A DNA stretch of 64,000 nt, from the NCBI GenBank assembly GCA_036387135.1, contig DASVUH010000007.1, forward strand, positions 2,105 to 66,104, read 5' to 3'. The notes under the pieces are model-generated. The model was not told where the DNA came from. It did no database searches and saw nothing but the letters and a program-made list of their open reading frames with translations. Source of the DNA: Pyrinomonadaceae bacterium. Lineage in GTDB: Bacteria > Acidobacteriota > Blastocatellia > Pyrinomonadales > Pyrinomonadaceae. Position 1 is the first letter of the stretch. Each line of letters opens with the position of its first letter. Shown here in pieces: positions 7,207 through 64,000 of the stretch. The translations under genes were made by a program, and so were the position numbers.

Positions 7207-8132
7207 ACGGAGTTTTAATCATAGACAAACCCGAAGGCTTAACGTCGCACGATGTCGTTGGCAGAGCGCGGCGCATTTTAAAAACGCGCAGCGTCGGACA
7301 CACAGGCACGCTCGACCCGTTTGCGACCGGAGTTCTGGTCGTTTTAATCGGCAAAGCGACCAGACTCGCGCAATTTCTCGACAAAGCCGAAAAAGAATAT
7401 CTGGCGACAATCCAATTCGGATATTCAACCGACACGGGCGACAGAACTGGATTGCGGATTGCGGATTGCGGATTGCGGATTGAAGAAATCGCGGCGCGAA
7501 TAACTGCGAGCAATGTTGAAAAAGCCTTAGTCAAGTTTCGCGGAGAAACGCTGCAAACTCCGCCGATGTATTCGGCAAAAAAAGTCGGCGGGAAAAAACT
7601 TTACGAATTGGCTAGAAAAGGCGTGGAAATCGAACGCCAGCCGGTCAAAATCAAAATCTCGGAATTGGAAATTGTCGAAAATTCTGAAAATCAATCCGCA
7701 ATCCGCAATCCGCAATCCGCAATTGTGAGGGTTGTGTGTTCAGCCGGAACTTACATCCGCGTTTTGGCGGAAGACATTGGAAAAGAATTGGAAACGGGCG
7801 CGCATCTGGCGGAGCTTCGCCGGACGCGAGCCGGAAGTTTCGATTTACGCCAAGCCGTGACGCTTGAAGAGCTTGAGAATCTTGCGATTGAAAATCGAAT
7901 CGGAGAAATTAAAATTTCTCCAAACGATGCTCTCGGACATTTTCCGTTCGTTGTTTTAGATGAACTCGGAATAGCCCGGACGCTCAACGGAATGAAAACG
8001 AAAGTTTCCTCAAATTTTAACGACGCAGAGTTTGTTCGTTTGTGCGATGAGAGCGGAAACCTTGTTGCCGTCGGCGTTTTCGATGAACGGGAACAAGTTA
8101 TCCAACCGCGAATTGTTTTCGGCGCGGCTTAA
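7203..8132 (+). CDS. truB: tRNA pseudouridine(55) synthase TruB. The reading frame contains two in-frame heptamer-repeat insertions (features 7449..7482 and 7692..7725).
   Basis: TTG start. Canonical TruB N-terminus GVLIIDKPEGLTSHDVV..GHTGTLDPFATGVL with the catalytic Asp. FRGETLQTPPMYSAKKVGGKKLYELAR motif. C-terminal PUA-like region. Confidence 0.9.
   Translation: MNGVLIIDKPEGLTSHDVVGRARRILKTRSVGHTGTLDPFATGVLVVLIGKATRLAQFLDKAEKEYLATIQFGYSTDTGDRTGLRIADCGLRIEEIAARITASNVEKALVKFRGETLQTPPMYSAKKVGGKKLYELARKGVEIERQPVKIKISELEIVENSENQSAIRNPQSAIVRVVCSAGTYIRVLAEDIGKELETGAHLAELRRTRAGSFDLRQAVTLEELENLAIENRIGEIKISPNDALGHFPFVVLDELGIARTLNGMKTKVSSNFNDAEFVRLCDESGNLVAVGVFDEREQVIQPRIVFGAA
7449..7482. repeat. 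(GGATTGC)n heptanucleotide tandem repeat, ~4.9 copies, in-frame inside truB (encodes GLRIADCGLRI)
   Basis: Perfect tandem copies read directly from the sequence. Confidence 0.9.
7692..7725. repeat. (CAATCCG)n heptanucleotide tandem repeat, the inverted-orientation copy of the repeat at 7449..7482, in-frame inside truB (encodes QSAIRNPQSAI)
   Basis: Reverse complement of GGATTGC repeated ~4.9 times. Lies 210 bp downstream of the first array. Confidence 0.9.
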
Positions 8133-8139
8133 AAAGCAA

Positions 8140-8168
8140 TTGACACATTCTGCAATCGAATTTAAATT
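8140..8168 (+). promoter_or_regulatory. Candidate sigma70-type promoter: TTGACA (8140-8145), 17-bp spacer, TAAATT (8163-8168), ~40 nt upstream of the ORF at 8208
   Basis: Perfect -35 consensus and a 4/6 -10 match with canonical spacing. Read by eye, not scored. Confidence 0.3.
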
Positions 8169-8207
8169 CATCTCGTCACAATTTGAAATTGCTGAAAGGA
8201 AAATTGG

Positions 8208-9467: not shown

Positions 9468-9480
9468 CCGCCTTTTTTAT
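9455..9480. terminator. Bidirectional rho-independent terminator between convergent genes (hairpin ggcggttagctaaccgcc flanked by an A-run upstream and a T-run downstream)
   Basis: 18-nt palindrome at 9455-9472 and T6 at 9473-9478. A7 at 9446-9452 gives a U-run for the minus-strand transcript. Confidence 0.6.
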
Positions 9481-9499
9481 TTTTAGATTGCCGCAGAAA

Positions 9500-11218: not shown

Positions 11219-11312
11219 TTTTAGAAGCTCCTAAATTTTATAACAGAATCGAGCTGTGTTTGGTTTAGCTTGAAAGTTGTTGAATTTATACTGCGCGTAT
11301 CAGGGAAAAGTT

Positions 11313-17244: not shown

Positions 17245-17344
17245 TGAACCGCTGAGACGCAGAGACGCCGAGTTTAAGAAAAAGAGTTTGAGACAAAAGA
17301 ATAAAAAATCTTTTCCCGGCGTCTCTGCGTCTCGGCGGTGAAAA
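17245..17344. repeat. MITE-like intergenic repeat, copy A. 17-bp terminal inverted repeats gagacgcagagacgccg / cggcgtctctgcgtctc with an A-rich core, ending ctcggcggtgaaaat.
   Basis: Perfect inverted repeats at 17254-17270 and 17318-17334. The 5-prime flank (ttgaaccgcYgagacgca) and 3-prime end (gcgtctcggcggtgaaaat) are shared with copy B at 28744..28866. Confidence 0.75.
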
Positions 17345-18370
17345 TCACTTTTGCGTCCGAGCAAGTTCGTCGCGCACTTTTTTCATATCTTCCCACGTTT
17401 CCCGCTTTTTCGACGGGTCGCGCAAAAGATAAGCCGGGTGAAAAGTCGGCATCACTTTAATGCCGTAATAATCCTGAAATTTACCGCGAATTTTGGTGAT
17501 TCCTTCTTTCGTGTCAAGCAGATTCTGCGTCGCCGTGTTGCCCATTACAACGATGATTTCGGGGCGCGCGATGGAGATTTCGCGCATTAAAAATTGGCGG
17601 CAGGTTCTGGCTTCCTGAATCGTCGGCGTGCGGTTTTGCGGTGGGCGGCACCGGTTGACGTTGCCGATTAAAACTTCCTCGCGTTTTAAACCGATGGCTT
17701 CGATGATTTTGGTCAAAAGCTGTCCGGCGCGCCCGACAAAGGGGCGTCCCTCGGCGTCTTCGTTCGCGCCCGGCGCTTCGCCGACAAAAAGAATGCGCCC
17801 TGTCCAATTGCCTTCCGTGTGGACGATTTTCGTTCTGCCCTGATAAAGCGGGCAGCGCACGCAATCGCCGATGTCGGCGCGGATTTCCTCGACAGTTTCG
17901 TTCGATTCCGGGAGCGTTGCGGATTCCGGCGTCAGATCGCCAAAAAGTGAACCTTCCATTTTTGTTTCCTCTGATTTTTTTGCAAAATTCTGCGGCGGCG
18001 CGACGTTTATTGGCTCTGCAATTTTTTTTAGAATTTCCGGCGCACTTGATTCTTCCTCGCGCGCTGCAACCGACGGCGAGATTTTCGACAATTTTGTCGC
18101 TTCCAATTTATCGCGGAAAGAATTTAAACGAGGCAGCGGCTTTGTTTGGGGCGCAGCAACAGGTTTCGGCGGCGCGGTTTTGTTCACGGGCGGCACATAA
18201 GCCTGAAAAGCGGGCGGCGCGGCTCTTAAAGTCTGAGGCTGTGTTTCTTCCGTTTTTTCCGCGACAAAATCGGTTTCCAATCCTGCAACGCCCAATTCTT
18301 GCGCAAACGCTAAATGCTCGCGCACGTCCGCAAGCAATTCCAAAAAATCTTCGCGCAAACTTTCAGCCAT
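17345..18370 (-). CDS. Uracil-DNA glycosylase family 4 (4Fe-4S type) with a ~170-aa Pro/Ala-rich low-complexity N-terminal extension
   Basis: C-terminal domain carries CVRCPLY, GEAPGANEDAEGRPFVGRAGQLL, NRCRPP..ARTCRQ (four Cys) and FHPAYLLR. Confidence 0.85.
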   Translation of the reverse strand: MAESLREDFLELLADVREHLAFAQELGVAGLETDFVAEKTEETQPQTLRAAPPAFQAYVPPVNKTAPPKPVAAPQTKPLPRLNSFRDKLEATKLSKISPSVAAREEESSAPEILKKIAEPINVAPPQNFAKKSEETKMEGSLFGDLTPESATLPESNETVEEIRADIGDCVRCPLYQGRTKIVHTEGNWTGRILFVGEAPGANEDAEGRPFVGRAGQLLTKIIEAIGLKREEVLIGNVNRCRPPQNRTPTIQEARTCRQFLMREISIARPEIIVVMGNTATQNLLDTKEGITKIRGKFQDYYGIKVMPTFHPAYLLRDPSKKRETWEDMKKVRDELARTQK

Positions 18371-18373: not shown

Positions 18374-19669
18374 CTACTTTTGCTGCCGCAATTTTATCAC
18401 TTCATCGAGTATTTTGTGTGCAGCTTCGTACTTTGAAACGAGCGGCAGAGCCAGCGGTTTTGTTCCGTTTTTCGATAAAATCGTGATTTGATTTGTGTCC
18501 GCGCCAAAACCGGAATCGGAGCGCGAAACATCGTTGGCGACAATTAAATCCAAATTTTTCGCAATCAATTTTTGCCCGGCGTGTTCCAAAACATTTTCGG
18601 TTTCGGCGGCAAATCCGACGACCAGCAAATTCTCGCCGCGCTTTGCCGAAACATCCGCCAAAATGTCCGGCGTTTTTTCGAGTTCAAGAATCAAATCGGC
18701 GTTTTTCTTTTTGATTTTCTCACCTTCGCGTTTTTTCGGACGATAATCGGCAACCGCCGCAGCCGCAATAAAAACCGTAGCATTTTCAATTTCGCTCAAA
18801 ACCGCCCGGTGCATTTCTTCGGCTGAAAAGCCCCGCACGACTTTTACGTTTTCGGGCAATTCGACGCTGACAGTTCCAGCAACCAAAACAACTTCCGCGC
18901 CTCTTTCGCTTGCCGCTTTCGCCAGCGCGACGCCCATTTTTCCGCTTGAATAATTCGAAATGAAACGCACCGGATCAATTTCCTCGCGCGTCGCTCCGGC
19001 GGTTATTAAAATCCTTTCGGATTTAAGGTCTTCGGTCTTCGGTCTTCGGTCTTCGGAAATTTTCTCCTCTTCTCCTCTTCTCCTCTTCTCCTCTTCTAAA
19101 ATTTCCAGAGCGCGACGAACAATCACATCCGGTTCGCTCAAACGACCGGGTCCGACGGTTTTGCAAGCCATTTCGCCCGTGTCGGGTTCGACAAAATGCG
19201 CGCCGTCTCGCCGCAGTTGTTCCAAATTGCGCTGCGTTGCCGGATGCAAGAGCATTTGCGTGTTCATCGCCGGAGCGATTAAAACCGGCGCGGTGGCGGC
19301 GAGATAAGCGGTTGAAAGAAAATCATCGGCAATTCCGTTGGTAAATTTGGCAATGATGTTGGCGGTGGCGGGCGCGATTAAAAGCAAATCAATGTTTTGC
19401 GAAAAATTGATGTGAGCAATCGGGTCTGGATTTTCGGGCGCGTAATCGTCAACCAAAACGTATTTTTCGGTCAGAGCGCGAAAGGTTAAAGGCTGAACGA
19501 ATTCGGTTGCATGGCGCGTCATCGCCACCTGTACTTCGCAGCCGGCTTTTTGCAGCCCGCGCAAAACCTCGACCGCTTTGTAAGCCGCGATTCCGCCCGC
19601 AACTCCCAATCCGACGCGCCATTTTTTATTCTTCTCGTTCATTGCTCGAACCGTTCGCAAATGTAGCAT
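18374..19669 (-). CDS. coaBC: Bifunctional phosphopantothenoylcysteine decarboxylase / phosphopantothenate-cysteine ligase CoaBC (Dfp). The interdomain linker carries repeat insertions.
   Basis: N-terminal flavoprotein motif RVGLGVAGGIAAYKA and a C-terminal CoaB domain (~431 aa total). Linker EEEKRRRGEEEKISEDRRPKTEDLK is encoded by the STR arrays. Confidence 0.9.
   Translation of the reverse strand: MLHLRTVRAMNEKNKKWRVGLGVAGGIAAYKAVEVLRGLQKAGCEVQVAMTRHATEFVQPLTFRALTEKYVLVDDYAPENPDPIAHINFSQNIDLLLIAPATANIIAKFTNGIADDFLSTAYLAATAPVLIAPAMNTQMLLHPATQRNLEQLRRDGAHFVEPDTGEMACKTVGPGRLSEPDVIVRRALEILEEEKRRRGEEEKISEDRRPKTEDLKSERILITAGATREEIDPVRFISNYSSGKMGVALAKAASERGAEVVLVAGTVSVELPENVKVVRGFSAEEMHRAVLSEIENATVFIAAAAVADYRPKKREGEKIKKKNADLILELEKTPDILADVSAKRGENLLVVGFAAETENVLEHAGQKLIAKNLDLIVANDVSRSDSGFGADTNQITILSKNGTKPLALPLVSKYEAAHKILDEVIKLRQQK
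19027..19056. repeat. (GGTCTTC)n heptanucleotide tandem repeat, ~4.3 copies, in-frame in the coaBC linker
   Basis: Read directly from the sequence. Confidence 0.9.
19063..19097. repeat. (CTCCTCTT)n-type CT-rich tandem repeat, ~4 copies, adjacent to the GGTCTTC array inside coaBC
   Basis: Read directly. A similar CT-rich tract recurs in the exosortase gene at 58922..58957. Confidence 0.85.
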
Positions 19670-23177: not shown

Positions 23178-24155
23178 ATGGAATCAATCGCCGCTAAAAA
23201 CTTTCCGCAAACTCCGTTTGAATCGCGCGCCGAACTCGAACGCGCTTATGAGTTTTGCCGCCAAATCACCAAAAAACACGCCAAAAGTTTTTATTTCAGC
23301 GCGCGTTTCTTAAAAAAAGAAAAGCGCCAGCCGATTTACGCGCTTTACGCGCTTTGTCGTCTGGTTGACGACGAAGTTGACGCCATAGAAGTCGGAAGCG
23401 AGCGCGAAGCAATCAAAGCGGTCGAAATCTGGAAACAAAAGCTTGATGAAATCTACCAAAATGCGGAATTAAATAACAACGAACGACGAACAACGAACGA
23501 CGATCAAACTCTGGTTTTGCTCGCCTGGCGAGAGATGTTGAAAAAGTATCGAATCCGGCAGGAACTGCCGCTCGAACTAATGCGCGGCGTGGTTCAGGAC
23601 ACGCACGTCAAGCGTTACGAAAGCTGGCGAGAGCTTTACGTTTATTGTTTTCGCGTGGCTTCGACGGTCGGATTGATGTCTTCGGAGATTTTCGGTTATG
23701 AAAAACCGGAAACTTTGGAATACGCCGAAGCGCTCGGAATTGCGATGCAGTTGACGAATATTTTGCGCGATGTTCGGGAAGACGCGGCGATGAACAGAAT
23801 TTATTTGCCGCAGGAAGATTTGCGGACTTTTAATGTTTCGGAAGAACAGATTTTCGCCGGGCGAGTTGATGATAATTTTATCGCTTTGATGCAATTTGAA
23901 ATCGAGCGCGCGCGCGAATACTACCGAAAAGCCGAGCGTGGAATTCCGCTTCTTGAGAAAGACGCGCGTTTTTGTGTTTTGCTTGCCGCCAGAATTTATG
24001 CGGCGATTTTAAATGAGATCGAACGGCAAAATTACGACGTTTTCGCAGCCCGCGCCCATACTACAAAATTTCAAAAAATACGCGCAATTCCCGGCATTTG
24101 GCGCGAAGCTCGGCGAATGCGACCGGCAATTCAAAATTCCGCAAAATCGCGCTAA
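23178..24155 (+). CDS. Phytoene/squalene synthase family protein (CrtB/HpnD-like). Contains an in-frame heptamer-repeat insertion.
   Basis: YCFRVASTVGLMS and QLTNILRDVREDAAMNRIYLP motifs. 4-nt gap from the upstream polyprenyl synthase gene. Confidence 0.8.
   Translation: MESIAAKNFPQTPFESRAELERAYEFCRQITKKHAKSFYFSARFLKKEKRQPIYALYALCRLVDDEVDAIEVGSEREAIKAVEIWKQKLDEIYQNAELNNNERRTTNDDQTLVLLAWREMLKKYRIRQELPLELMRGVVQDTHVKRYESWRELYVYCFRVASTVGLMSSEIFGYEKPETLEYAEALGIAMQLTNILRDVREDAAMNRIYLPQEDLRTFNVSEEQIFAGRVDDNFIALMQFEIERAREYYRKAERGIPLLEKDARFCVLLAARIYAAILNEIERQNYDVFAARAHTTKFQKIRAIPGIWREARRMRPAIQNSAKSR
23475..23507. repeat. (CRACGAA)n heptanucleotide tandem repeat in-frame in the crtB-like gene (encodes NNNERRTTNDDQ). 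Same unit as the array at 36028..36067.
   Basis: Read directly from the sequence. Confidence 0.85.
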
Positions 24156-28743: not shown

Positions 28744-28866
28744 TGAACCGCCGAGACGCAAAGACGCAGAGAAAATTAAAGAAAAAAATGAGAAGAATTC
28801 GAGTGAAAAGAAGAAACCTCTCTTCTTTTCCTAAAAATCTCGGCGTCTCGGCGGTGAAAATTTTCT
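28744..28866. repeat. MITE-like intergenic repeat, copy B. Inverted termini ccgccgagacgc / gcgtctcggcgg with an A-rich core, ending ctcggcggtgaaaat.
   Basis: Shares its 5-prime flank and 3-prime end with copy A (17245..17344). Sits in the divergent promoter region between the ABC ATPase and the asparaginase-like gene. Confidence 0.75.
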
Positions 28867-37388: not shown

Positions 37389-37427
37389 ACTGAAGATGTT
37401 AATTTCGCTCAGGTTTATTGTCAAAAA

Positions 37428-37474
37428 ATGAAATTCACGGTTCTCGGCAGCGGTTCGACCGGAAATGCGGTTTT
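37428..37474. repeat. 47-bp direct repeat, copy 2: the genuine 5-prime end of the MBL-fold gene. Right boundary of the vapBC insertion.
   Basis: Identical to 36676-36722. Confidence 0.85.
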
Positions 37475-38252
37475 GATTTCTGCCGGAAAAACAAAAGTTC
37501 TGATTGACGCCGGTTTGAGCGCGAAAGAAATTGTGCGCCGCTGCGTTGAAGTCGGCGAAGACGTTGCAAAGCTCGACGCGGTTCTCGTCACGCACGAACA
37601 TTCGGATCATGCGGGCGGTTTGCGGGTTTTGCTCAAAAGTCTGAATTGCCCGGTTTATATGTCGGGCGAAACGCTCGAAGCGTATCTTTTTGAAAAGCGT
37701 CACGTTAAGCCTGACGAAGGTGTTAAACGGACCGACGCGATTAAAGGGAAAGTCGTTGAAATTCAATCAAGCCAGGACTTCCGCATCGGTGAAATCGAGT
37801 TTGAGCCTTTCAGCGTGCCGCACGACGCGGCTGACAATTTCGGTTTCGTCGCCAAATATTGCGGAATCAGATTAGCGGCGGTGACGGATTTCGGGCAGAT
37901 GACGACGTTGATTTCACAAAAACTGCGCGGATGCGACGCGATTATTATTGAATCGAATCACAGCTTGCCGATGCTGCGCGCGTGTCCGATTTATTCGTGG
38001 GATTTAAAACAAAGAATCGCGTCGCGCACCGGGCATCTTTCAAACGAAGATTTAGCCGTCTGGCTTTCCGCTGAGTTTGACGGCGCGGCGCGTCACATCG
38101 TTCTCGCGCATCTCTCGCAAAAAGCGAACGAGCCGCATCTGGCGCGTTTAACCGCCGAACAAGCTATCGCGATGCGCTCGCCGCTTTTCAAAGCCGAAAC
38201 AAAAATCACTCTCACGCATCACAAAGAACCGACCGAGTGGATCGAGTTTTAA
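37428..38252 (+). CDS. MBL-fold metallo-hydrolase
   Basis: HEHSDHAGG metal-binding motif. N-terminus MKFTVLGSGSTGNAVLI typical of this fold. Start chosen at ATG 37428 rather than the upstream ORF start. Confidence 0.8.
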   Translation: MKFTVLGSGSTGNAVLISAGKTKVLIDAGLSAKEIVRRCVEVGEDVAKLDAVLVTHEHSDHAGGLRVLLKSLNCPVYMSGETLEAYLFEKRHVKPDEGVKRTDAIKGKVVEIQSSQDFRIGEIEFEPFSVPHDAADNFGFVAKYCGIRLAAVTDFGQMTTLISQKLRGCDAIIIESNHSLPMLRACPIYSWDLKQRIASRTGHLSNEDLAVWLSAEFDGAARHIVLAHLSQKANEPHLARLTAEQAIAMRSPLFKAETKITLTHHKEPTEWIEF

Positions 38253-38977
38253 AAAACTCTTTGCGGCGTCGGTTTAGTCCCAAGCGCAAAAACTTTAATC
38301 AATAAAAATCCGGCGACAAAACCGCCGATGTGCGCCATATAAGCCACGCCGCCGGCTTCGGCGGATGAAAAATACCCGCGAAAAAGCTGCAATCCGATCC
38401 AAATGCCGAGGGCAATAAACGCCGGAATTTGGATGACAGTGAAAAAAATAATCGCAGTTATGCTGCGGCGCGGAAATAATAAAATATAACCGCCGAGAAC
38501 GCCCGAAATCGCGCCCGAAGCGCCGAGCATCGGAATAATCGAATTCTGGTCGGTGAAAATCTGCGCCAGAGCCGCAAATGTTCCGCAGACGAGATAAAAA
38601 ACCGCAAAACGAATGTGTCCCAAACGGTCTTCGAGATTGTCGCCGAAAATCCATAAATAAAGCATATTGCCGAAAATATGCATTAAACCGCCGTGCATAA
38701 ACATCGAGGTCAGAATCGTTCCCCAAACCGGAATCGGCGTCGGCTGTAAAGGAATCACGGCGCGGTTGCCGAAAGAATCGCGGATTATCTGCGGCGCGGC
38801 AAGATCAACGCCGGTCGTAATCTCACGCGGGACGACCGAAAAAGCGTAGGTAAAAGCGTCGTTATAACCCGCGCCCTGAAACAAAATGTAAACCACGATG
38901 TTTGCCGCAATCAGCAAATAAGTTACATACGGAAATCGCAGCAGGTCACTGTTATCGTCGCCAATCGGAAAAAGCAT
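38249..38977 (-). CDS. Rhomboid family intramembrane serine protease
   Basis: GASGAISGVLG (GxSG catalytic Ser) and HIGGFVAGFLL (catalytic His helix). Multi-TM. Confidence 0.85.
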   Translation of the reverse strand: MLFPIGDDNSDLLRFPYVTYLLIAANIVVYILFQGAGYNDAFTYAFSVVPREITTGVDLAAPQIIRDSFGNRAVIPLQPTPIPVWGTILTSMFMHGGLMHIFGNMLYLWIFGDNLEDRLGHIRFAVFYLVCGTFAALAQIFTDQNSIIPMLGASGAISGVLGGYILLFPRRSITAIIFFTVIQIPAFIALGIWIGLQLFRGYFSSAEAGGVAYMAHIGGFVAGFLLIKVFALGTKPTPQRVF

Positions 38978-38978: not shown

Positions 38979-39017
38979 GGAATTAATTACGAATTATGAA
39001 TTACGAATTACGAATTC
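38979..39017. repeat. (GAATTAC)n heptanucleotide tandem repeat, ~5 copies, intergenic, immediately upstream of the rhomboid start codon
   Basis: Read directly from the sequence. Confidence 0.85.
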
Positions 39018-40413: not shown

Positions 40414-41865
40414 ATGACTCGATTTTTCTCCGTCATTTTAATTTTGTGCGTTTCGACAATCGCTTTCGCTCAATCGCGGCGCGTTCCGCCGGTGCGGACA
40501 AATCCAGCCGCGACCGCGCCAAGCGCAACTGCGGAAAATCCGGTTTCTCCCGATGCAAATGAAGCCGCAAAAAACGGAGCGGCGCTTTACGAGGACGCGA
40601 ACACTTACGCGAAGCGCAAGTTTGAAGATTACGAGCGGCGCAAACTTCCTTACAACGACGAATTGCGCCAGACGACTCAGCGCGAACAGCGTCAGCTTGC
40701 CGCTAAATACGCAGCGCAGCTTGCGGCGCAAAATCCGGCGGGCGATGATTTGTATTTTCTCGGAATGCTGCAACTCTTGGCGACAAATACCGACGGCGCG
40801 GGCGAAACGATGAAAAAATATCTCGCTTTGCCGGAAAAAGACGGCGAAAAAGCGCAAACCGCGCGCTCGATTGCCGCCGTTACAGCCGCGCGCCGCAAGA
40901 ATTTCGATGACGCCGAAGCGCTCTTAAAAGAATATTTGAAAAACGCGCCCGTCAAAGTCGCGGAGCGCGTTTTGATTGAAAGCGAAATGGCGGAAAACTA
41001 TATCGCCGCCAGACAACAAGAACGCGCCGCGTTTCACGCCGAATCTGCGCTGCTTGCCGCCAAACCCGCGCTTTCCGATCCCGGTTCCAACAAACGGCTC
41101 GTCAAAGACGTTTACGAATTGGCGATGAAGTTGTTTGAAATTCACGCCGCAGCGGGCGCGAAACAAAAAGCCGAAACGGTTTTGGAAAATCTGCGCGAAA
41201 CCGGCGCGCACGTCAATCAGCCGGATTTATACTGGCTGGCAACCGATAAATTAGTTGCGTTTTTGATTGAAACAGGGCGCAAGCCGGAAGCTCTGCAAAA
41301 AGTGAAAACCACAAAGGACGGGCTTGATACGGCGTTTCGAGACCCCGGATCGCGCGCCAAAATTCTCGCTTTTTTAAGAAAACGCGAGCCGCAATACAAA
41401 TTGCTCGGCGAAGCTGCGCCGGAACTGGCGGCAGATAAATGGCTGGGCGAAATCGGCGCCTCGTCGCTCGCCGGTTTGCGCGGCAAAGTCGTGCTTTTGG
41501 ATTTTTGGGCGCATTGGTGCGAGCCTTGCTACGCGGCTTTCCCGAATCTTTCCGAATGGCACAAAACTTATTCCGGTCAAGGCTTTGAAATCGTCGGCGT
41601 CACCCGTTATTACGGCTCGGCTGAAGGTTTCGGCGCGGATGCCGACACGGAATTCGCGTTTTTGCAAAAAATCAAACGCAACCAGCGTTTGCCTTACCCG
41701 TTCGCCATTGCAAAAGGACTCGTTAATCACAACCGTTTTTCGGTCGAAAGCCTGCCGACCGGAATTTTAATTGATAAAAAAGGCGTCGTTCGCTACATCA
41801 GCACCGGCTCAAATCACGCCGGCGAGGAAATGGAAAACTCGATTAAAAAACTGCTCTCCGAGTAG
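40414..41865 (+). CDS. Secreted TlpA/ResA-like thiol:disulfide oxidoreductase (thioredoxin fold, WCEPC active site) with an N-terminal TPR-like helical domain
   Basis: Signal peptide. LLDFWAHWCEPCYAAFP CxxC motif in the C-terminal ~150 aa. Start taken at ATG 40414. Confidence 0.75.
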   Translation: MTRFFSVILILCVSTIAFAQSRRVPPVRTNPAATAPSATAENPVSPDANEAAKNGAALYEDANTYAKRKFEDYERRKLPYNDELRQTTQREQRQLAAKYAAQLAAQNPAGDDLYFLGMLQLLATNTDGAGETMKKYLALPEKDGEKAQTARSIAAVTAARRKNFDDAEALLKEYLKNAPVKVAERVLIESEMAENYIAARQQERAAFHAESALLAAKPALSDPGSNKRLVKDVYELAMKLFEIHAAAGAKQKAETVLENLRETGAHVNQPDLYWLATDKLVAFLIETGRKPEALQKVKTTKDGLDTAFRDPGSRAKILAFLRKREPQYKLLGEAAPELAADKWLGEIGASSLAGLRGKVVLLDFWAHWCEPCYAAFPNLSEWHKTYSGQGFEIVGVTRYYGSAEGFGADADTEFAFLQKIKRNQRLPYPFAIAKGLVNHNRFSVESLPTGILIDKKGVVRYISTGSNHAGEEMENSIKKLLSE

Positions 41866-41955
41866 CGGAGAACTGAGAATGAAGAACGGAAAACCGATAA
41901 GAAAATTCAACTATTATCGGTTCTCCGTTCTCAGTTTTACGTTCTCAGTTTTCTT

Positions 41956-58001: not shown

Positions 58002-59591
58002 ATGCAAAATTCCTGGGTTAAAAACAGTTTCGCCAAATTTTGGCAGCCTTTGCTGCTTGCCGCGACTTTGCTGTTTTTGTACGCGCCCGCTTTAAAGCTG
58101 CTCGCGCAAACCTGGTGGACGGACGAAAACTATTCGCACGGGCTTTTGATTCCGTTTTTGATTGGCTTTCTGCTCTGGTTTGAAAAGGACGAGCTGGGAA
58201 AACTGGAAAAACGCCCGGCTTTTCCGGCGGGCGGAATCACTGTTTTGGCGGCGATGCTTCTTTTGCTCGTCGGAATTTTGGGCGCAGAGCTTTTTACGCA
58301 GAGATTTTCGCTTTTGCTGATGCTCGCCGGAATTACGATTTATTTTTTCGGCTGGCAAATTTTGAAAAAGCACGTCGTGCCGTTTGTTTTGCTCGCGCTG
58401 GCGATTCCGATGCCGACGATTCTTTTTAACAAAATCGCATTTCCGCTTCAGCTTTTGGCGACGGATTTGGCGGTTTGGGGAATTCGGCTGTTCGGAATTC
58501 CGGCGGCGAAATTCGGTAACGTCATCGAATTGCTGCCGCGCGGCGCTTCGCAATCAATCTGGCTCGAAGTCGTCGAGGCGTGCAGCGGGATTCGCTCTTT
58601 GATGACGCTCGTCACGCTCGCGCTCGTATATGCTTATTTTACGAGCCGACGGAGGAATTTCGCGTCTTTAAAAAGTTTTGATTTGTGGCGCGCGGCAATT
58701 TTAATGTTTGCCGCATTGCCGATTGCGGTTTTAACCAACGGCGTGCGCGTCTCCGCGACCGGGATTCTGGCTTATTACTACGGCGGTGAAACCGCGCAGG
58801 GCTTTTTGCACGGCGCTTCGGGCTGGCTGGTTTATGTCGCGGCTTTGCTGCTGCTGCTGTTTGTCGGAAAAATCCTGGATTTAAGCCGGAGACAGGGAGA
58901 AATCAGCAAAACTGATTTTCACTCCTTTTCTCCTTTTTTCCTCTTCTCCTCTTCTTTTAAATTCTGGCTTTTGCTGCTGGTTTTGCTAACGGGCGGCGCG
59001 CTGATTCATTGGCGCGAAGCGGCAGGTGAAATTCGTCCCGACAGAAAACTGTTGAAAGATTTTCCGGCGAAAATCGGCGATTGGCGGCAAAACGGCGCAG
59101 ACCAGCGTTTTGAAACTGAAGTTGAAACGGTTCTCGGCTCGGACGATTATTTGATGCGCGATTATTTTGTCCCGGCTTCGGGCAAAGGCGCGAATCTTTA
59201 CATCGGTTATTATGAAACTCAGCGCACGGGCGCGACTTATCACAGCCCGCGCAACTGTCTGCCCGGTTCGGGCTGGACGATGACCGAAAGCGAGCCGGTG
59301 GAAATCAGTTTGCCCGACGGGCAGAAATTCGTCGCCAACAATTATGTAATTGAAAACAATCGCTCAAAAGCCTTGATGATTTACTGGTATCAAGGGCGCG
59401 GGCGATTTGTCGCAAATGAATATAAAGACAAGTTTTTCACCGTTTTAGACAGCATTTCGCGCCGCCGCTCGGACGGCGCGATGATTCGCGTCGTCGTTTC
59501 GATTGACAAATCCGAACAAGACGCCCTGGAAACCGCTAAAAACTTGGCTGCCGGAGCAGCCGCCGACCTCCACGAATTTGTGCCAAATTAA
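58002..59591 (+). CDS. Exosortase (EpsH/Xrt family) fused to a C-terminal EpsI-family domain. Contains a CT-rich repeat insertion.
   Basis: N-terminus WWTDENYSHGLLIP. Catalytic region EVVEACSGIRSL and TNGVRVSATG. The C-terminal ~190 aa resemble EpsI. Confidence 0.8.
   Translation: MQNSWVKNSFAKFWQPLLLAATLLFLYAPALKLLAQTWWTDENYSHGLLIPFLIGFLLWFEKDELGKLEKRPAFPAGGITVLAAMLLLLVGILGAELFTQRFSLLLMLAGITIYFFGWQILKKHVVPFVLLALAIPMPTILFNKIAFPLQLLATDLAVWGIRLFGIPAAKFGNVIELLPRGASQSIWLEVVEACSGIRSLMTLVTLALVYAYFTSRRRNFASLKSFDLWRAAILMFAALPIAVLTNGVRVSATGILAYYYGGETAQGFLHGASGWLVYVAALLLLLFVGKILDLSRRQGEISKTDFHSFSPFFLFSSSFKFWLLLLVLLTGGALIHWREAAGEIRPDRKLLKDFPAKIGDWRQNGADQRFETEVETVLGSDDYLMRDYFVPASGKGANLYIGYYETQRTGATYHSPRNCLPGSGWTMTESEPVEISLPDGQKFVANNYVIENNRSKALMIYWYQGRGRFVANEYKDKFFTVLDSISRRRSDGAMIRVVVSIDKSEQDALETAKNLAAGAAADLHEFVPN
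58922..58957. repeat. CT-rich tandem repeat tract (ctcctttt / cctcttc units) in-frame between the exosortase and EpsI domains (encodes FSPFFLFSSSF)
   Basis: Read directly. Similar to the coaBC tract at 19063..19097. Confidence 0.7.
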
Positions 59592-59769
59592 CAAATCCGT
59601 GCTACAATGCCGCAAAATCAAAACTCTTTCGCGCTACTCCCAAGCGCTTGATTTTTGGGATGTTTCAACGATTCGCAATATTCCCTTAATGCCGACAATT
59701 TTCTAATCGGTTGTAAAAATAAATAAAATTACGAGTTTTAAGTTTTAAATCCAAACGAATTAGCCCAGA

Positions 59770-62076
59770 ATGAAAGCAAATTCTCCGAAAATCAGATTCG
59801 TCACCGCAGCTTTGGCTTTGCTCGCCGCAAATCTCCTTATTTTTTCCGGCGCGGCTTGCAGCACGGCAAAGGCGGTACAAGCGCACGTCGAGCGCGGCGA
59901 AAGCTATCTCAAAGAACGGCGTTTCCCCGAAGCCTCGCTCGAATTTCGCAGCGCGATTGAACTGGATAAAGCTTCCGCTCCGGCGCATTTCGGTCTGGCG
60001 CGCGCTTTTGAAGGTCAGCAGCGGCTGGCGGAAACGGTGGAAGAATTGCGCCGCACGGTCGAACTGGACAAAACTCAACTCGAAGCGCGCGTAAAATTGG
60101 GAAATTATTTGCTGATAGCGCAGCCGCCTTTAACGGAAGAAACCGAAAAATTAATTCAGGAAATTTTCGCCGCCGACCCGAATTACATTGAAGGTCACGT
60201 TTTGCAGGCGAGCGTGATGACGGTCAAAAACGCCGCGACGAGCGAAGTCGCCGCCCAACTCGAAAAAGCCGTTTCGCTCAATCCGCAAAGAGTCGAAACG
60301 TATCTCAGTCTGGCGCGTTTTTACGTTTCGCGCGAGAAAACGGAGGACGCTGAAAAAACGTTCAGCCGCGCTTTTGCCGTCAACGAAAAATCGGCAATCG
60401 CGCACATCGAATACGCGCGTTTTCTCGATCTCAAAGGGCGCGCTGACGAAGCCGAAAAACATTATCTGCGCGCGACGGAAGTCGAACCGAAAGAGCGCGA
60501 GCCGCTCGAAGCTCTCGCCGGATTTTATTACGCGCACGGACAGCTCGAAAAGGCGGAAAACGCTTATAAAAATTTGGGCAATTTAAATCCCGACCGACCG
60601 GAAGAAAAAACTCTGCTCGCGGATTTTTACGCAGCCGTTAATCGCCCGGATGATGCGCGGCGAATTTACGGCGAGATTTTGGCGGTCAGACCGGAATTTG
60701 TCCGCGCTCGGACACGAATGGGCGAGCTTTATTTGCAAACCGGCGACACCAAAGCGGCGAGCAATGAAGTGACGGAAATTCTGAGCCGCAACAACAAAGA
60801 CGTGCAGGGTTTGACTTTGCGGGCGCGCGTTTCTTTAAAAACCGGCGAGCCGGAAGCCGCAATCAAGGATTTACAGGAAGTTTTAAAACAGGAACCGAGC
60901 AACCGGCTGGCGCTTTATTATATGGCTGACGCTCAGTTTCGCGCCGGGCAAACCGAACAGGCGCGCAATTTTATAAACGATTTACAGCGTTATCATCCGA
61001 ATTATCCGCACGCCAAGCTTTTAAACGCGCAAATCAGCTTTGCCGCAGGCGAGCCGGAAACTGCTTTGAATCAAGCGAACGAGTTGCTCAAAACGCTTGA
61101 AAAATCTACCCCCGACGGCGATATTTCCGCCGCTTCGCTCGCCGAGCTGCGCGTCAACGCTCTCGTCGCGCGCGGAACGGCGAATTTGCAGCTCGGAAAG
61201 GAACAGGAAGCGCGCGCCGATTTCCAAATTGCGCAAAAGCACGCTCCAAATTCGGCTAGCGTGTATCTGAGTCAGGCGAGCGCCGCGCAGCGCGGCAAAA
61301 ACGCTGCGGAAGCCGCGCGCTTTTACGAAAAGGCTTTGCAGCTCGACGCCAATAATTTCGACGGCTTGAGCGGTTTCGTCAGCGCCAAGATTCGGCAAAA
61401 AGATTTCACGGCGGCGCATTCGCAAATTGATCGCGCTTTTAGCGCAAACCGCGCCGACAATAAATTGCAAGCCGCGCTTTTTTATCTCAAAGCGCAGGTT
61501 TTCACGGCGGAAAACAAAACCTCGGAAGCCGAAAATGCTCTTCATCAATCAATCGCTCAGAATACCGATTATCTTCCGGCTTATCAGGCTTACGCCGCTT
61601 TGCTCGCAGCGAGCAGACAAGTTGACCGCGCGATTGAAAATTATCGCCAGATTTTGCAGCGCAGCCCTGCGAGCGATGAAACTTTTACGCTCATCGGGAT
61701 GCTCGAAGAAGGACGCGGAAACGCGGACGAAGCGGTTAAGAATTACCGCGAGGCTTTGCGAGTCAATCCGAATGCTCCGGTTGCTGCGAATAATCTGGCG
61801 TGGATTATCGCCGACACCGGGCGCGGAAATTTGGACGAAGCCGTTACGCTGGCGCAAACGCTCGTCGAAAAACATCCGAACGAGCCGGTTTATGCAGACA
61901 CGCTCGGCTGGGTTTTTCACAAAAAAGGTCAAAAAGATCGGGCAATCGCACAGCTTCGACGCGCCGTCTCGCTCGAAGAAAAAGCAGCCCTGCAAGCCGG
62001 GCGCGCGCCCGCGCAAATGTATAAAAACCGTCTCGAAACGGTTCTCGCCGCTGCGGACAACCGCGCTGCTCTCTAA
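59770..62076 (+). CDS. PEP-CTERM-system-type TPR repeat lipoprotein (PrsT-like)
   Basis: 768 aa, lipoprotein-like signal ..FSGAAC, wall-to-wall TPR repeats. Positioned between the exosortase and the chain-length determinant gene. Confidence 0.7.
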   Translation: MKANSPKIRFVTAALALLAANLLIFSGAACSTAKAVQAHVERGESYLKERRFPEASLEFRSAIELDKASAPAHFGLARAFEGQQRLAETVEELRRTVELDKTQLEARVKLGNYLLIAQPPLTEETEKLIQEIFAADPNYIEGHVLQASVMTVKNAATSEVAAQLEKAVSLNPQRVETYLSLARFYVSREKTEDAEKTFSRAFAVNEKSAIAHIEYARFLDLKGRADEAEKHYLRATEVEPKEREPLEALAGFYYAHGQLEKAENAYKNLGNLNPDRPEEKTLLADFYAAVNRPDDARRIYGEILAVRPEFVRARTRMGELYLQTGDTKAASNEVTEILSRNNKDVQGLTLRARVSLKTGEPEAAIKDLQEVLKQEPSNRLALYYMADAQFRAGQTEQARNFINDLQRYHPNYPHAKLLNAQISFAAGEPETALNQANELLKTLEKSTPDGDISAASLAELRVNALVARGTANLQLGKEQEARADFQIAQKHAPNSASVYLSQASAAQRGKNAAEAARFYEKALQLDANNFDGLSGFVSAKIRQKDFTAAHSQIDRAFSANRADNKLQAALFYLKAQVFTAENKTSEAENALHQSIAQNTDYLPAYQAYAALLAASRQVDRAIENYRQILQRSPASDETFTLIGMLEEGRGNADEAVKNYREALRVNPNAPVAANNLAWIIADTGRGNLDEAVTLAQTLVEKHPNEPVYADTLGWVFHKKGQKDRAIAQLRRAVSLEEKAALQAGRAPAQMYKNRLETVLAAADNRAAL

Positions 62077-62103
62077 AGATTTTGAGGTTCGCGTAAAACG
62101 AAA

Positions 62104-62271
62104 ATGTTATCGGCAGTTTTCACAATTTTGTTAGACATTAAGCTGCAAAGCGTTGACTTTAATGAAGATGCGTGGGTGCTGATGGCGGGCGTCGGGTTGA
62201 TAATTTTGGTGTTTGTTCTGCGGCGCTGGTTCCGCGGCGGCAAAAAAGATGAAACAAACTTGCTGTTTTAA
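62104..62271 (+). CDS. Possible small single-TM protein (55 aa) between the PrsT-like and Wzz-like genes
   Basis: MLSAVFTILLDIKLQSVDFNEDAWVLMAGVGLIILVFVLRRWFRGGKKDETNLLF. Below the ORF-track cutoff and found by eye. Hydrophobic helix followed by RRWFRGGKK. Confidence 0.3.
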   Translation: MLSAVFTILLDIKLQSVDFNEDAWVLMAGVGLIILVFVLRRWFRGGKKDETNLLF

Positions 62272-62284
62272 CTGGTAAAAAAAC

Positions 62285-63946
62285 ATGGGCGTTGAATTTC
62301 GGCAAAGAAGTTTAGGCGAATTATTCGCAATGGTTTGGCGGCGCAAGCTGATTATTTTGCTGCCCGTCGCGGCGATGACCGTGGCTGTCTGGTGGGTTGT
62401 CGTGCAGCTTCCGAGCATTTACGAATCAACCACGCTTTTGACGATTCGCCCGCCCGCGATCTCGAACAACGTGATTCAACCGCTTTCGGACGAAGATGTG
62501 TCGGCGCGGCTTAATCAAATCACCGAAGAAATCAAAAGCCGCTCATCGCTCGAACCGATGATCACGAAATACAGACTCTTCACACGCGAACGCGATGCGG
62601 GCGTGCCGATGGAGCTTTTGATTGACCGGATGCGGACCAACATCAATGTCCAGATGCGAGACCGCACGGCGGACGACAAAGTTCCCGCTTTTACGATTTC
62701 CTACCGCGACCGCGAACCTGAAGCCGCGCGCAACGTCGTCGCCGAGCTTGCCGGAAAATTTGTCAACACGCAAACGGAAAACTCCCAGCGCGAGTCGAAA
62801 GCGACGCAGGAATTTTTCGAGAAACAGCTCGCCGAATCGAAAGAGAAATTAGACCAGATTGACGCGCAGCGGCTCACGTATATGCTGCAAAATGTGGACA
62901 AACTGCCGACCGCTGCGGGCGGTTTGATCGCGCAGCTCAACGGTTTGCACGAGCAGTTAAAAACCGCAGCCGAGCGCGAGCAGTCGGTCGAAACCGAAAT
63001 CGGGCGAATGCGCGACAATCGGGTTTTGCTCGAACGCCAGAAAAACACGATTAGCGACATCAGCGAAAAAGAAGCCGCCGAGCGCGACCGCCTGCTTTCC
63101 GATCCGACTCGAACGCCCGCTTATGCGGATTTGATTAAGCGCCGCACCGAATACAAAGAGCAGTTGCAAAAAATGCAGACCGAATATCGCCCGAAACACC
63201 CGGACGTTGTCGCCAAGCAAGCGCAAATCGAAACGGTCGAGAAAGAAATCGCCGCGCTGGTTGCTTCAGCGAAAACCAGTCAGGACGAAATGCGAGCCGC
63301 GTCCAGAGGCAGAATTGATTTGCAAATTCAGAGCATCGAAAACGAGCAGCGCCGGATAGACGGTGAAATCGGCAGGCAAGAGCAGCTTTTACAACAAATA
63401 AAAAGTTCGGCGGGGCAGGTTCAAACCGCAATCAGCGATTTGCAGCGCCGCATCGAAAGCATCCCGAATGCGGAAGTCGCGCTCGAATCTTTCAACCGCG
63501 ATTACCAGACCGCAAAAGGGAGCTATGACGAGCTGTTAAAGAAAAACAATGACGCCCGCTTGCAAGCCGAGCGCGAAAAAAATTCGCAGGGCGAAACGAT
63601 TCGAGTCGTTGACGCGGCGAATTTACCGCAATCTCCGGTCGCGCCGAAACGCCCGATGCTGATTGCCATCGGCGCTTTGCTCGGTTTGGCGCTCGGTTTT
63701 GTTTTCGCGGCGGCGGCGGAAATGCCGCGCCTTTTCACGATTCAAAGCGTTGACGACGCCAAACATTACACGGGGCTTCCCGTTTTGGCGAATGTGCCGG
63801 AGCTTTTAACGCCCGCTGAGAAACGCTGGCGGGCGATTTTCGGAGTTTTGAAAACAGGATTTGCCGTTGCGGTTGCCGCCGCGAGCATTCCGGTTTTAAT
63901 TTTCGTGCTGCAAATATCGCACGTTTTTGACAGGTTTGTTTCTTAA
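62285..63946 (+). CDS. Polysaccharide chain-length determinant protein (Wzz/GumC-like, PEP-CTERM-locus subfamily)
   Basis: N-terminal TM LIILLPVAAMTVAVWWVVV. Long coiled-coil periplasmic region. C-terminal TM MLIAIGALLGLALGFVFAAAA. Confidence 0.8.
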   Translation: MGVEFRQRSLGELFAMVWRRKLIILLPVAAMTVAVWWVVVQLPSIYESTTLLTIRPPAISNNVIQPLSDEDVSARLNQITEEIKSRSSLEPMITKYRLFTRERDAGVPMELLIDRMRTNINVQMRDRTADDKVPAFTISYRDREPEAARNVVAELAGKFVNTQTENSQRESKATQEFFEKQLAESKEKLDQIDAQRLTYMLQNVDKLPTAAGGLIAQLNGLHEQLKTAAEREQSVETEIGRMRDNRVLLERQKNTISDISEKEAAERDRLLSDPTRTPAYADLIKRRTEYKEQLQKMQTEYRPKHPDVVAKQAQIETVEKEIAALVASAKTSQDEMRAASRGRIDLQIQSIENEQRRIDGEIGRQEQLLQQIKSSAGQVQTAISDLQRRIESIPNAEVALESFNRDYQTAKGSYDELLKKNNDARLQAEREKNSQGETIRVVDAANLPQSPVAPKRPMLIAIGALLGLALGFVFAAAAEMPRLFTIQSVDDAKHYTGLPVLANVPELLTPAEKRWRAIFGVLKTGFAVAVAAASIPVLIFVLQISHVFDRFVS

Positions 63947-64000
63947 ACGATGAACGATGAACGATGAATGATGAACGGATTTTAATTCATCATTCATCGT
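63947..64000. repeat. (ACGATGA)n heptamer array followed by its inverted copy (ttcatcattcatcg), forming a 14-bp hairpin directly after the Wzz-like stop codon
   Basis: cgatgaatgatgaa (63963-63976) and ttcatcattcatcg (63986-63999) are exact reverse complements. The window ends here. Confidence 0.8.

Follow-up and report, generated by a model that had tools for sequence, protein, structure and literature searches.

Heptanucleotide repeats were the commonest long simple sequence repeats (SSRs) in the 2007 survey of Mrazek et al., as summarised in two later papers, and neither their origin nor their role is known to have been explained. The present locus comes from a metagenome-derived genome of a soil bacterium of the Pyrinomonadaceae (Acidobacteriota). 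The window, by which we mean the whole stretch of 64,000 nucleotides analysed, provides together with its relatives an unusually clean natural experiment on heptamer repeats, since loops in TruB, M16 and CoaBC can be traced across the Pyrinomonadaceae and display unit turnover, concerted evolution and long-term stability. What is documented is a known repeat class in a new form, with many different units and with in-frame arrays in essential enzymes. The most plausible explanation, to which we assign a probability of roughly 0.55, is that the arrays are of the STRR or heptanucleotide long-SSR kind, arising by slippage or template switching and persisting where they are tolerated or useful.

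Tandem arrays in the window

Arrays were detected with Tandem Repeats Finder (TRF) and an exact-period scan. Seven clear heptamer arrays, one degenerate heptamer array and two octamer arrays make up ten array loci in 64 kb, with GGATTGC and AACAACG each used twice (about 74 kb of the host genome was covered):

7449-7482, plus strand: GGATTGC, 4.9 copies; truB site 1, in frame in truB (7203-8132), residues 83-94, GLRIADCGLRIE
7692-7723, plus strand: CAATCCG, 4.6 copies; truB site 2, in frame, residues 164-174, QSAIRNPQSAI
19027-19056, minus strand: GAAGACC on the coding strand (GGTCTTC on plus), 4.3 copies; CoaBC interdomain linker, residues 205-215, SEDRRPKTEDL
19062-19097, minus strand: octamer GAGGAGAA on the coding strand, 4.5 copies; CoaBC linker, residues 191-203, LEEEKRRRGEEEK
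23475-23507, plus strand: AACAACG/AACGACG, 4.7 copies; in frame in a squalene/phytoene-synthase-family (CrtB-like) gene (23178-24155), residues 100-110
36027-36067, plus strand: AACAACG/AACGACG, 5.9 copies; in frame in an M16 peptidase gene (35398-36672), residues 210-224, interdomain linker
38985-39016, minus strand: AATTACG (CGTAATT on the minus strand), 4.6 copies; intergenic, upstream of a rhomboid gene
41862-41952, no strand assigned: degenerate inverted pair with arms 41862-41897 (GGAGAAC-like) and 41917-41952 (GTTCTCN; 41920-41952 and GTTCTCA in the repeat scan)
58922-58955, plus strand: CT-rich octamer, 4.2 copies, 88% matches; in frame in an XrtD-type exosortase, residues 307-318
63946-64000, plus strand: AACGATG, 4.6 copies (63946-63977), a 10-nt loop and an inverted copy, this second arm being cut by the window end

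At a TRF score of at least 40 and at least 3 copies, the window holds seven period-7 arrays (4.3-5.9 copies) and two period-8 arrays. No array of either period occurred in 200 shuffles; the 100 mononucleotide shuffles were wholly empty and the 100 triplet-block shuffles yielded a single row, of period 11. The first-pass annotation had counted at least nine arrays of 7-nt units. Its heptamers stand, as seven clear arrays and one degenerate array, while the "CT-rich tracts" among them have a period of 8, and the arrays at 41.9 kb and at the window end each form half of an inverted pair, which corrects its description. The peptides it quoted (GLRIADCGLRI, QSAIRNPQSAI and TTNDEQRTTNNEQ) are all correct, as is the CRACGAA unit that recurs in the crtB-like gene and, at a distance of 12.5 kb, in the M16 gene.

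The source contig is a short-read metagenome assembly, and the same annotation had named assembly artefact as a ground for discarding the arrays. The independent ENA and JGI assemblies are, however, concordant, with 3 mismatches over 21,662 positions and identical arrays. The array-bearing proteins are also identical across NCBI, JGI and ENA records, and orthologous arrays are present in further samples and species. That the arrays are assembly or sequencing artefacts has practically no probability.

Loops and linkers built from 7-nt units

Five of the eight heptamer arrays lie in frame within ORFs, so that the proposed tolerance of arrays inside coding sequence is borne out. The reading frame is likewise preserved in conserved genes, as had been claimed: the host ORFs are uninterrupted, and Pfam domains are detected on either side of the arrays in TruB (two sites), CoaBC, the CrtB-like synthase, the M16 peptidase and the XrtD exosortase. 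A 7-nt repeat is read in three frames and thereby yields loop insertions with a period of seven residues in essential enzymes. On the coding strand the in-frame arrays contain 36% A and 19% T, and the residues encoded are mainly S, K, R, Q, A and N.

Where solved structures or domain models allowed comparison, the arrays occupy variable loops or interdomain linkers. TruB site 1 adds 6-7 residues relative to solved TruB from M. tuberculosis and from E. coli and is of low confidence in the predicted model; site 2 adds 4-8 residues relative to solved TruB. The CoaBC linker exceeds that of the related loci L002 and L005 by 9 residues and that of M. smegmatis CoaBC (6tgv) by 14, and L166, L002 and L005 carry different arrays there. 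In the CrtB-like protein the array adds about 9 residues relative to 5iys; its site is shared with L002, which has a degenerate array, and with L005, where the unit is GACAACG/GACGACG. The M16 linker is hypervariable relative to 3hdi and to its orthologues, and the octamer array of the exosortase falls between the EpsH and EpsI domains. A search with the peptide (NNEQRTT)x6 for hosts of AACAACG arrays returned only short, probably spurious ORFs. These matches cover long arrays, which belong to Burkholderia, Gemmataceae, Flagellimonas and Aphanizomenon.

Whether the repeat-encoded segments are lineage-specific insertions had been raised as a check. Relative to solved homologues and array-less orthologues the residues are indeed added or replaced in variable loops and linkers, but they are not restricted to one lineage; the sites are family-wide hot spots in which the units differ. 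When each sequence was compared with itself shifted by exactly 7 residues, at least three identities were found in 57 of 120 TruB orthologues at site 1 and in 84 of 120 at site 2. Offsets of 4-6 and 8 gave 0-3 and offsets of 9-10 gave 0-12 at both sites, and the two control segments gave 0 at offset 7. Among the metagenome matches listed for the TruB alignment, most are about 50% identical and not close relatives. The M16 linker met the same measure in 71 of 120 orthologues, and at both the TruB and the M16 sites many different units are found. In L170 the M16 site carries CAATCCG units, which match the conserved flank CCGCAATTGG; judged from the sequence, this flank may have been a local seed for the array, and we count it in favour of the slippage explanation.

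Arrays within ORFs are the classic substrate of phase variation, and it had been suggested that gain and loss of units drives phase or length variation of protein loops, as in contingency loci that switch genes or vary loop length within populations. One TruB orthologue (P0003, 87% identity) does lack exactly 7 residues, equivalent to three units, at site 2. No array, however, differed in copy number among relatives of at least 90% protein identity (5 TruB, 7 full-length CoaBC, 9 CrtB-like, 3 M16 and 2 exosortase sequences), which showed point substitutions only. The M16 array has the same copy number in L168 and L169, and M16 arrays have 5.9 copies throughout in genomes at 93-97% identity; no change in unit number was found between the ENA and JGI assemblies or in syntenic relatives. 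An imperfect unit is also preserved between genomes, 4-6 copies are few for slippage-driven switching, and frameshifts would be harmful since the hosts are housekeeping genes. The arrays thus look stable rather than switch-like, phase variation is not supported, and contingency behaviour is very improbable. They are poor phase-variation markers and useful lineage markers.

Complementary arrays in truB and between genes

Within truB, the site 2 array is the exact reverse complement of the site 1 array and lies 209 nt further downstream, and the RNA is predicted to fold into a 34-bp duplex between them (-128 kcal/mol, z = -7.3). The units vary among relatives (GGATTGC, GGAGTGC, GGAGCGC and GGAATGC), and over seven lineages 84% of the cells in the helix are paired. 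The covariation score is 0.113 against 0.076 in shuffles (4/500), although by the tool's own caveat such an excess can come from relatedness alone. Strict covariation was considered and rejected: the window and L164 seemed compensatory, but in L165, L166 and L167 every unit carries one mismatch. The covariation signal in these aligned sequences is suggestive only. Of the TruB orthologues, 15 carry the site-1 family only, 2 the site-2 family only and 11 both, and in many the arrays are non-complementary. Complementarity over seven lineages suggests a function beyond tolerance.

The same is suggested by the AATTACG array, which 7 nt separate from the downstream rhomboid gene (38249-38977, minus strand) and its start codon. 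It is identical at 32/32 positions in L168 and L170 and at 31/32 in L169, while the intergenic DNA on its flanks is 93%, 69% and 85% identical, respectively; the array is thus far better conserved than its flanks, and its lone imperfect unit is kept even where these are 69% identical.

The remaining intergenic arrays form inverted pairs. The pair at 41.9 kb lies between convergent genes, and its consensus fold has 32 pairs held in four genomes, two of them compensatory. The array at 63.95 kb lies between a Wzz/GNVR gene and an AAA_22 gene, and its full hairpin is seen in L082 (-37.4 kcal/mol, z = -6.3). Hairpin elements with octamer arms at 17.2 kb and 28.8 kb are likewise intergenic inverted pairs. 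Pairs of arrays with the same unit are inverted in 27 cases and direct in 17, and many of the inverted ones have spacers of 7-105 nt. An Rfam scan of the window at gathering thresholds gave zero matches.

Origin of the arrays and relation to known systems

Related loci totalling 2 Mb hold about 160 arrays with at least 3 copies, of which 88 have period 7. Array length peaks sharply at 30-32 nt for periods 7 and 8 alike, clear of the noise level of shuffles. The net insertions within genes are 21-27 nt. Open frames contain 54% of the 7-nt arrays in Pyrinomonadales/Blastocatellia loci, a figure inflated by the selection of loci through truB. Unrelated loci of one genome share units more often (16.4%) than loci of different genomes (4.2%; p = 2.6e-7), which hints at copying between loci or at a genome-specific bias. 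CAATCCG, GAAGACC and AACAACG recur at differing protein sites in differing lineages.

We infer that replication slippage or template switching, preferring a 7-nt step, gives rise to the arrays, which would grow to a favoured total of about 30-32 nt. No slippage event was directly observed, and close relatives lacked copy-number differences. Persistence, for which the evidence is partly at hand, would be restricted to places where arrays are harmless or somewhat beneficial. Within genes, selection would spare only those arrays that keep the frame, contain no stop codon and are rich in A and poor in T on the coding strand, and the resulting hydrophilic peptides of 7-residue period would fill surface loops or linkers of TruB, CoaBC, M16, the CrtB-like synthase and the exosortase. 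Between genes, arrays would survive chiefly as inverted pairs giving long hairpins, or, for AATTACG, as an AU-rich tract close upstream of a start codon. A substitution may then spread to every unit of an array as concerted evolution, of which the truB unit variants and the change between AACAACG in the crtB-like gene of the window and GACAACG in L005 are instances, and arrays of other units may take over permissive sites as hot-spot turnover. Simple slippage would not obviously give a sharp mode near 32 nt that holds for 7-nt as well as 8-nt units.

One may instead speculate that many arrays are selected nucleic-acid elements, with the residues in protein loops as a by-product. The inverted pairs would then be RNA hairpins (terminators, mRNA stabilisers or RNase III sites), translation would be influenced by the leader array, and in the truB mRNA the two arrays would pair over a long range in a conserved helix. 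The excess of closely spaced inverted pairs, the strong folding of the intergenic hairpins at 41.9 kb and 63.95 kb, the pairing and covariation in truB and the constancy of the AATTACG array all point this way. The non-complementary TruB arrays argue against it, as do the mismatched intermediate represented by truB of L167, the sufficiency of kinship for the truB excess, the single, partnerless arrays of CoaBC, M16 and the CrtB-like gene and the lack of an Rfam match in the window; we regard it as unlikely. Rather less credit is given to a dedicated process that is independent of sequence, for instance a repair polymerase or mobile-element-like copying; it would lay down units of about 32 nt, and genome-specific unit families would spread from locus to locus. 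We hold this explanation to be improbable. It would fit the sharp length mode at both periods, the sharing of units between unrelated loci of one genome, the 14-nt AACAACG-AACGACG super-unit common to the crtB-like and M16 arrays over 28 nt, and the recurrence of three units across lineages. Neither conserved flanks, target duplications nor an associated gene were found, however, and the in-gene insertions fall short of 32 nt. The second G-variant unit of the M16 array is specific to the window when compared with L168 and L169, so the 14-nt pattern can form within one array, and selection for hydrophilic, stop-free units narrows the usable pool, which makes convergence likelier.

A RAYT was considered as the agent. 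The lone nearby Y1 transposase lies next to truB in L164 and L167 and is flanked by a different REP, GAAGCCCGCGCGTCAGCAAGGGCGG, and tblastn detected no RAYT homologue in the window or the other loci. The candidate was rejected since its REPs are unrelated to the arrays and the transposase is absent from the window. A broader possibility is that a length-measuring, sequence-independent templated process makes the arrays of about 32 nt, spreads genome-specific families and rewrites loops of essential enzymes, some arrays being recruited as RNA elements, with the putative 32-bp truB helix as the clearest candidate; we hold this to be doubtful, and slippage with tolerance remains the preferred reading.

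Knowledge of heptanucleotide repeats in bacteria goes back to 1990. The heptameric STRR sequences belong to filamentous cyanobacteria (Calothrix, Nostoc/Anabaena), with several unit families per genome and CCCCAGT, TTGGTCA and CAACAGT as classic units; to our knowledge, no mechanism has been described for them. The resemblance to this class noted in the first-pass annotation is supported, and extends to the long SSRs: tandem 7-nt units occupy many scattered loci, and a single genome has several families of them. The present arrays differ in their acidobacterial host, in their many distinct units as opposed to few (none being one of these classic STRR units), with about 4.6 copies, and in lying largely within ORFs where STRRs are mainly intergenic.

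In the survey of Mrazek et al. 2007, as summarised in PMC4692102 and PMC4679880, heptanucleotides are in excess among prokaryotic long SSRs, and units with a length divisible by three are the most frequent in coding regions; polymerase-linked slippage is the standard proposal for the excess. Our arrays agree with that account in that period 7 is commonest and arrays far exceed chance, and depart from it in the frequency of 7-nt arrays in ORFs and in the constancy of unit number at 90% identity or more, with the one three-unit change at 87%. The GGGNATC/GGGGAYT heptamers of Xanthomonas and Nostoc prefer about four units (Rehm et al. 2015; PMC4692102), and are alike in unit number, inverted pairs, intergenic positions and a location kept between species while length or sequence varies. 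The window units, however, are not G-rich and none contains GGG or a G3 tract. The mode of four to five units (about 32 nt) among such units undercuts the G-quadruplex explanation offered elsewhere for a preference for four units, which cannot account for it here, and points to a property of the generating process.

REP/REPIN sequences mobilised by RAYTs are also dispersed intergenic inverted pairs with long hairpins. The elements with octamer arms (17.2 kb and 28.8 kb) come closest to them, but REP arms are not internally periodic and each RAYT has a single sequence (PMC3116915, PMC2817692). The coding arrays do not fit this pattern, and the RAYT of L164 and L167 is flanked by a different repeat. 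The contingency loci of Haemophilus and Neisseria share SSR tracts in ORFs and 5' regions, whereas here unit number is constant, a 7-nt step would frameshift housekeeping hosts and the hosts are not surface or host-interaction genes, only the exosortase being envelope-related. In marine Beggiatoaceae, cyanobacteria and Bacteroidetes, TAACTGA repeats form heptamer arrays with 2-6 copies that often lie just upstream of start codons, and it was noted for them that modular proteins could accommodate such arrays in their linkers as long as the frame has no stops (MacGregor 2015, PMC4679880). One unit is favoured genome-wide in those bacteria, in contrast to the dozens of units and the in-frame arrays of essential enzymes described here.

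Array inventory and length

Tandem Repeats Finder resolved seven clear period-7 arrays of 4.3-5.9 copies each in the window, together with one degenerate array and two arrays of period 8.

Tandem arrays of the window (Tandem Repeats Finder)
7449-7482: GGATTGC array, truB site 1
7692-7723: CAATCCG array, truB site 2
19027-19056: GGTCTTC array
19062-19097: period-8 array
23475-23507: AACAACG/AACGACG array
36027-36067: AACAACG/AACGACG array
38985-39016: AATTACG array, intergenic, 7 nt upstream of the rhomboid start codon (minus strand)
41920-41952: degenerate array
58922-58955: period-8 array
63946-63977: AACGATG array

An exact-period scan of the window (periods 4-12) detected runs of at least three copies at period 7 (four) and period 8 (one) and at no other period. 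With identical Tandem Repeats Finder settings, the real window gives 7 + 2 arrays, whereas 100 mononucleotide shuffles yielded none and 100 triplet-block shuffles no more than one row, of period 11. The heptamer arrays reported in the first-pass annotation are confirmed by these three analyses, with three corrections: the "CT-rich tracts" counted among them consist of octamers, the truB pair are reverse complements of each other, and two of the intergenic arrays form arms of inverted pairs. The window belongs to a 116.5-kb ENA metagenome contig whose PriA relatives place it in the Acidobacteriota, order Pyrinomonadales, and identical proteins are labelled "Pyrinomonadaceae bacterium" at NCBI. 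An assembly artefact is excluded by a JGI assembly of the same organism, in which 3 of 21,662 positions differ but none of the arrays does, and by orthologous arrays in further samples and species.

Of roughly 160 arrays with at least three copies in about 2 Mb of fetched loci, 88 have period 7; the next most frequent is period 8, with 24. Period-7 arrays in about 600 kb of Pyrinomonadales/Blastocatellia DNA show a bimodal length distribution: those of 20 nt or less equal the shuffled control and are noise, and the longer ones form a distinct peak at 30-32 nt (29 arrays, flanked by 10 of 27-29 nt and 9 of 33-35 nt; a further 6 reach at least 36 nt). Smaller bumps are seen for period 8, at 24-26 and 30-32 nt. 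Array density is 8.6 per 100 kb in the Pyrinomonadales/Blastocatellia loci, versus 2.8 in other taxa. Arrays lie in open frames in 54% and 38% of cases, respectively, versus 70-81% for random positions. The selection of loci via truB makes the Pyrinomonadales figure too high.

Hot spots in loops and linkers

All five host ORFs are open, and Pfam domains flank the arrays on either side. Set against solved structures, TruB gains 6-7 and 4-8 residues from its arrays, in two catalytic-domain loops, the arrays in CoaBC make the CoaC-CoaB linker about 14 residues longer, the squalene/phytoene-synthase-family protein is extended by about 9 residues, and the array of the M16 peptidase fills an interdomain linker with almost no net change in length; in the exosortase the array is found between the EpsH and EpsI domains. 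Overall confidence in an AlphaFold model of TruB is good (mean pLDDT 83) but falls to 51-57 in the 10-residue blocks covering residues 71-90 and 161-170, which overlap both arrays. On the coding strand the in-frame arrays are rich in A (36%) and poor in T (19%), and they chiefly encode S, K, R, Q, A and N. Since every base of such a unit takes each codon position once, this composition fits a filter for stop-free, hydrophilic loops.

Periodicity in the orthologues shows that the sites of the in-frame arrays are hot spots throughout the family and not one-off, lineage-specific insertions. With an offset of exactly 7 residues, three or more identities occur in 57 of the 120 closest TruB orthologues at site 1 and in 84 of 120 at site 2. 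At both sites, offsets 4-6 and 8 give 0-3 orthologues and offsets 9-10 give 0-12; two control segments give 0 at offset 7. The same 7-residue periodicity is seen in the M16 linker of 71 of 120 orthologues. Terriglobia-like TruB proteins, from more distant Acidobacteriota, have short loops and no periodicity. The peptide units differ between lineages, being GLRIADC, VRSAEYG, SPKSKVQ and ITNYELR at TruB site 1, QSAIRNP, HSALRTP, NNEQRTT and TQNSKLK at site 2, and TTNNEQR, RRPKTED, KIQNPKS, IRNPQSA and KDQRPKT in the M16 linker. The CoaBC linker carries (TCAAAGT)x4.6 in one relative (L166), a decayed version of this array in another (L002) and an octamer in a third (L005). Some unit changes, such as GGATTGC, GGAGTGC, GGAGCGC and GGAATGC in the truB genes of different relatives, or AACAACG in the crtB-like gene of the window versus GACAACG in L005, are single-base steps carried through every unit, that is, concerted evolution. 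The M16 array of the syntenic relative L170 (CAATCCG) matches the conserved flank CCGCAATTGG, which points to a local seed for that array.

The arrays are not hypervariable, and the phase or length variation that had been proposed for them is not supported. Within clusters at 90% identity (5 TruB, 7 full-length CoaBC, 9 CrtB-like, 3 M16 and 2 exosortase sequences) array length is constant and substitutions alone occur, and the 5.9 copies of the M16 array are kept in genomes at 93-97% identity. The AATTACG array is identical at 32 of 32 positions in two syntenic relatives, its imperfect unit included, with the remaining intergenic DNA around it 93% (L168) and 69% (L170) identical. The sole change of unit number seen was at TruB site 2 of an orthologue at 87% identity (P0003), which is shorter there by exactly 7 residues, or 3 units. 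Within the reach of these data, the rival reading of the arrays as contingency loci is refuted.

Adjoining the rhomboid gene, and kept in L168-L170, is a gene (37230-38252) for a metallo-beta-lactamase-fold protein with a precomputed match to PF23023 (Anti-Pycsar Apyc1-like). The DNA from 58002 to 64000 and onward, into the locus L082 that runs past the window end, is an exopolysaccharide/PEP-CTERM-type locus encoding an XrtD-type exosortase fused to EpsI, a large TPR protein, a Wzz/GNVR chain-length protein, an AAA_22 ATPase, a ParA-like tyrosine-kinase-type ATPase, a sugar transferase and a Poly_export protein.

Inverted pairs and hairpins

Among same-locus pairs of arrays with a common unit, 27 are inverted and 17 direct, and spacers of 7-105 nt are frequent. 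The truB arrays are predicted to fold in RNA as a 34-bp duplex enclosing 209 nt (-128 kcal/mol, z = -7.3). The inverted pair at 41.9 kb, between convergent genes, has 32 pairs kept in 4 genomes, 2 of them compensatory, and for the window-end pair, which separates the Wzz-like gene from the AAA_22 gene, the predicted fold has -37.4 kcal/mol (z = -6.3). The automatic call of the AAA_22 gene (L082 11680-12765) begins at an ATG inside the AACGATG array (63964); the true start is more likely the downstream ATG giving MYKEFFGLDELPF..., in which case array and hairpin would be intergenic.

Complementarity of the truB arrays extends over seven lineages, the most distant TruB being 67-69% identical to the window protein over the best aligned segment. 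Across these lineages 84% of cells are paired, versus 25-47% with the partner slid 1-3 columns, and the covariation score is 0.113 versus 0.076 in shuffles (4/500). Judged from these alignments, coupling of the two arrays appears real. It is not obligatory, since the arrays of three relatives (L165, L166 and L167) have one mismatch per unit and many orthologues carry a site-1 array alongside an unrelated site-2 array. Gene conversion between the arms could explain the coupling as well as selection for pairing.

Other hairpins were encountered. Two REP-like intergenic elements with arms of tandem octamers (17245-17345 and 28745-28865) have common flanks and the layout GAACCGC(C/T)GAGACGCAGAGACGC, A-rich spacer, GCGTCTC..GGCGGTGAAAAT. 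A third such REP-like, octamer-armed element lies past the window end (L082 16339-16404, window about 68623-68688), where a BNR-repeat gene call begins; its arms are (ACGCAGAG)x3 / (CTCTGCGT)x3, separated by 15 nt. Six octamer arrays, (ACGCAAAG)x4 and 31-32 nt long, occupy intergenic gaps of another Pyrinomonadales MAG (L008 1770-5149). Four of them make two inverted pairs, each with its arrays 82-83 nt apart, and the set resembles a family of octamer-armed hairpins specific to that genome. Outside the Acidobacteriota, in a MAG labelled Deltaproteobacteria bin40 (L064), 22 kb round priA has an unusually high density of heptamer arrays, six or more, with three inverted pairs at spacers of 19-92 nt, and the inverted-pair habit is therefore not confined to the Pyrinomonadaceae. 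In two relatives a Y1_Tnp (RAYT-like) gene lies between the esterase gene and truB (L164 9417-9932, L167 9447-9962; in the window the insertion point corresponds to the esterase/truB junction near 7203), with copies of its own REP GAAGCCCGCGCGTCAGCAAGGGCGG on either side, two direct upstream and one inverted downstream. A link to the heptamer arrays was rejected, the gene being absent from the window and unrelated to the arrays.

Origin of the arrays and relation to known repeats

Units recur within loci. Scoring a unit as shared at one mismatch or less, in any rotation or strand, 16.4% of same-locus array pairs share a unit versus 4.2% of different-locus pairs (p = 2.6e-7), and for same-locus pairs more than 300 nt apart the figure is 10% versus 4.2% (p = 0.011). 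The window has GGATTGC twice, and two of its unrelated genes contain AACAACG with an identical AACAACG-AACGACG alternation. Either copying of arrays between loci or a genome-specific bias in the heptamers expanded may account for this.

The analyses show that the arrays are real and stable, sit in loops at hot spots, have a preferred length and often occur as inverted pairs. For the generating process and any function, we infer as the best-supported account that arrays would be generated by slippage or template switching that favours 7-nt steps, would reach a preferred length of about 32 nt, be filtered by selection to loops, linkers and intergenic DNA, and change slowly through concerted evolution and replacement, some intergenic copies being retained as hairpins or leader elements. 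Among the main rivals, the reading as selected RNA elements draws on the hairpins and the conserved AATTACG array, but truB orthologues with non-complementary arrays and single coding arrays without a partner weaken it. The length mode and unit sharing support another rival, a dedicated process copying in units of about 32 nt, although flanks, target duplications or a candidate enzyme were not found.

A full-text literature search returned no paper on tandem repeats of Pyrinomonadaceae and none tying heptanucleotide repeats to Acidobacteria. The defining features of the window arrays are common to cyanobacterial STRRs and to the heptanucleotide long SSRs over-represented in many bacteria, and TAACTGA repeats upstream of start codons are also similar (PMC4679880). 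The closest known repeats are the heptamers of Xanthomonas and Nostoc, which likewise favour four units, occur as inverted pairs and stay at the same locations in different species (PMC4692102). Unlike these, the window has no G-rich unit, and a G-quadruplex explanation of the four-unit mode is therefore inapplicable here. From the known heptamer systems the window arrays differ in their host, in their many units and in being common in frame in essential genes.
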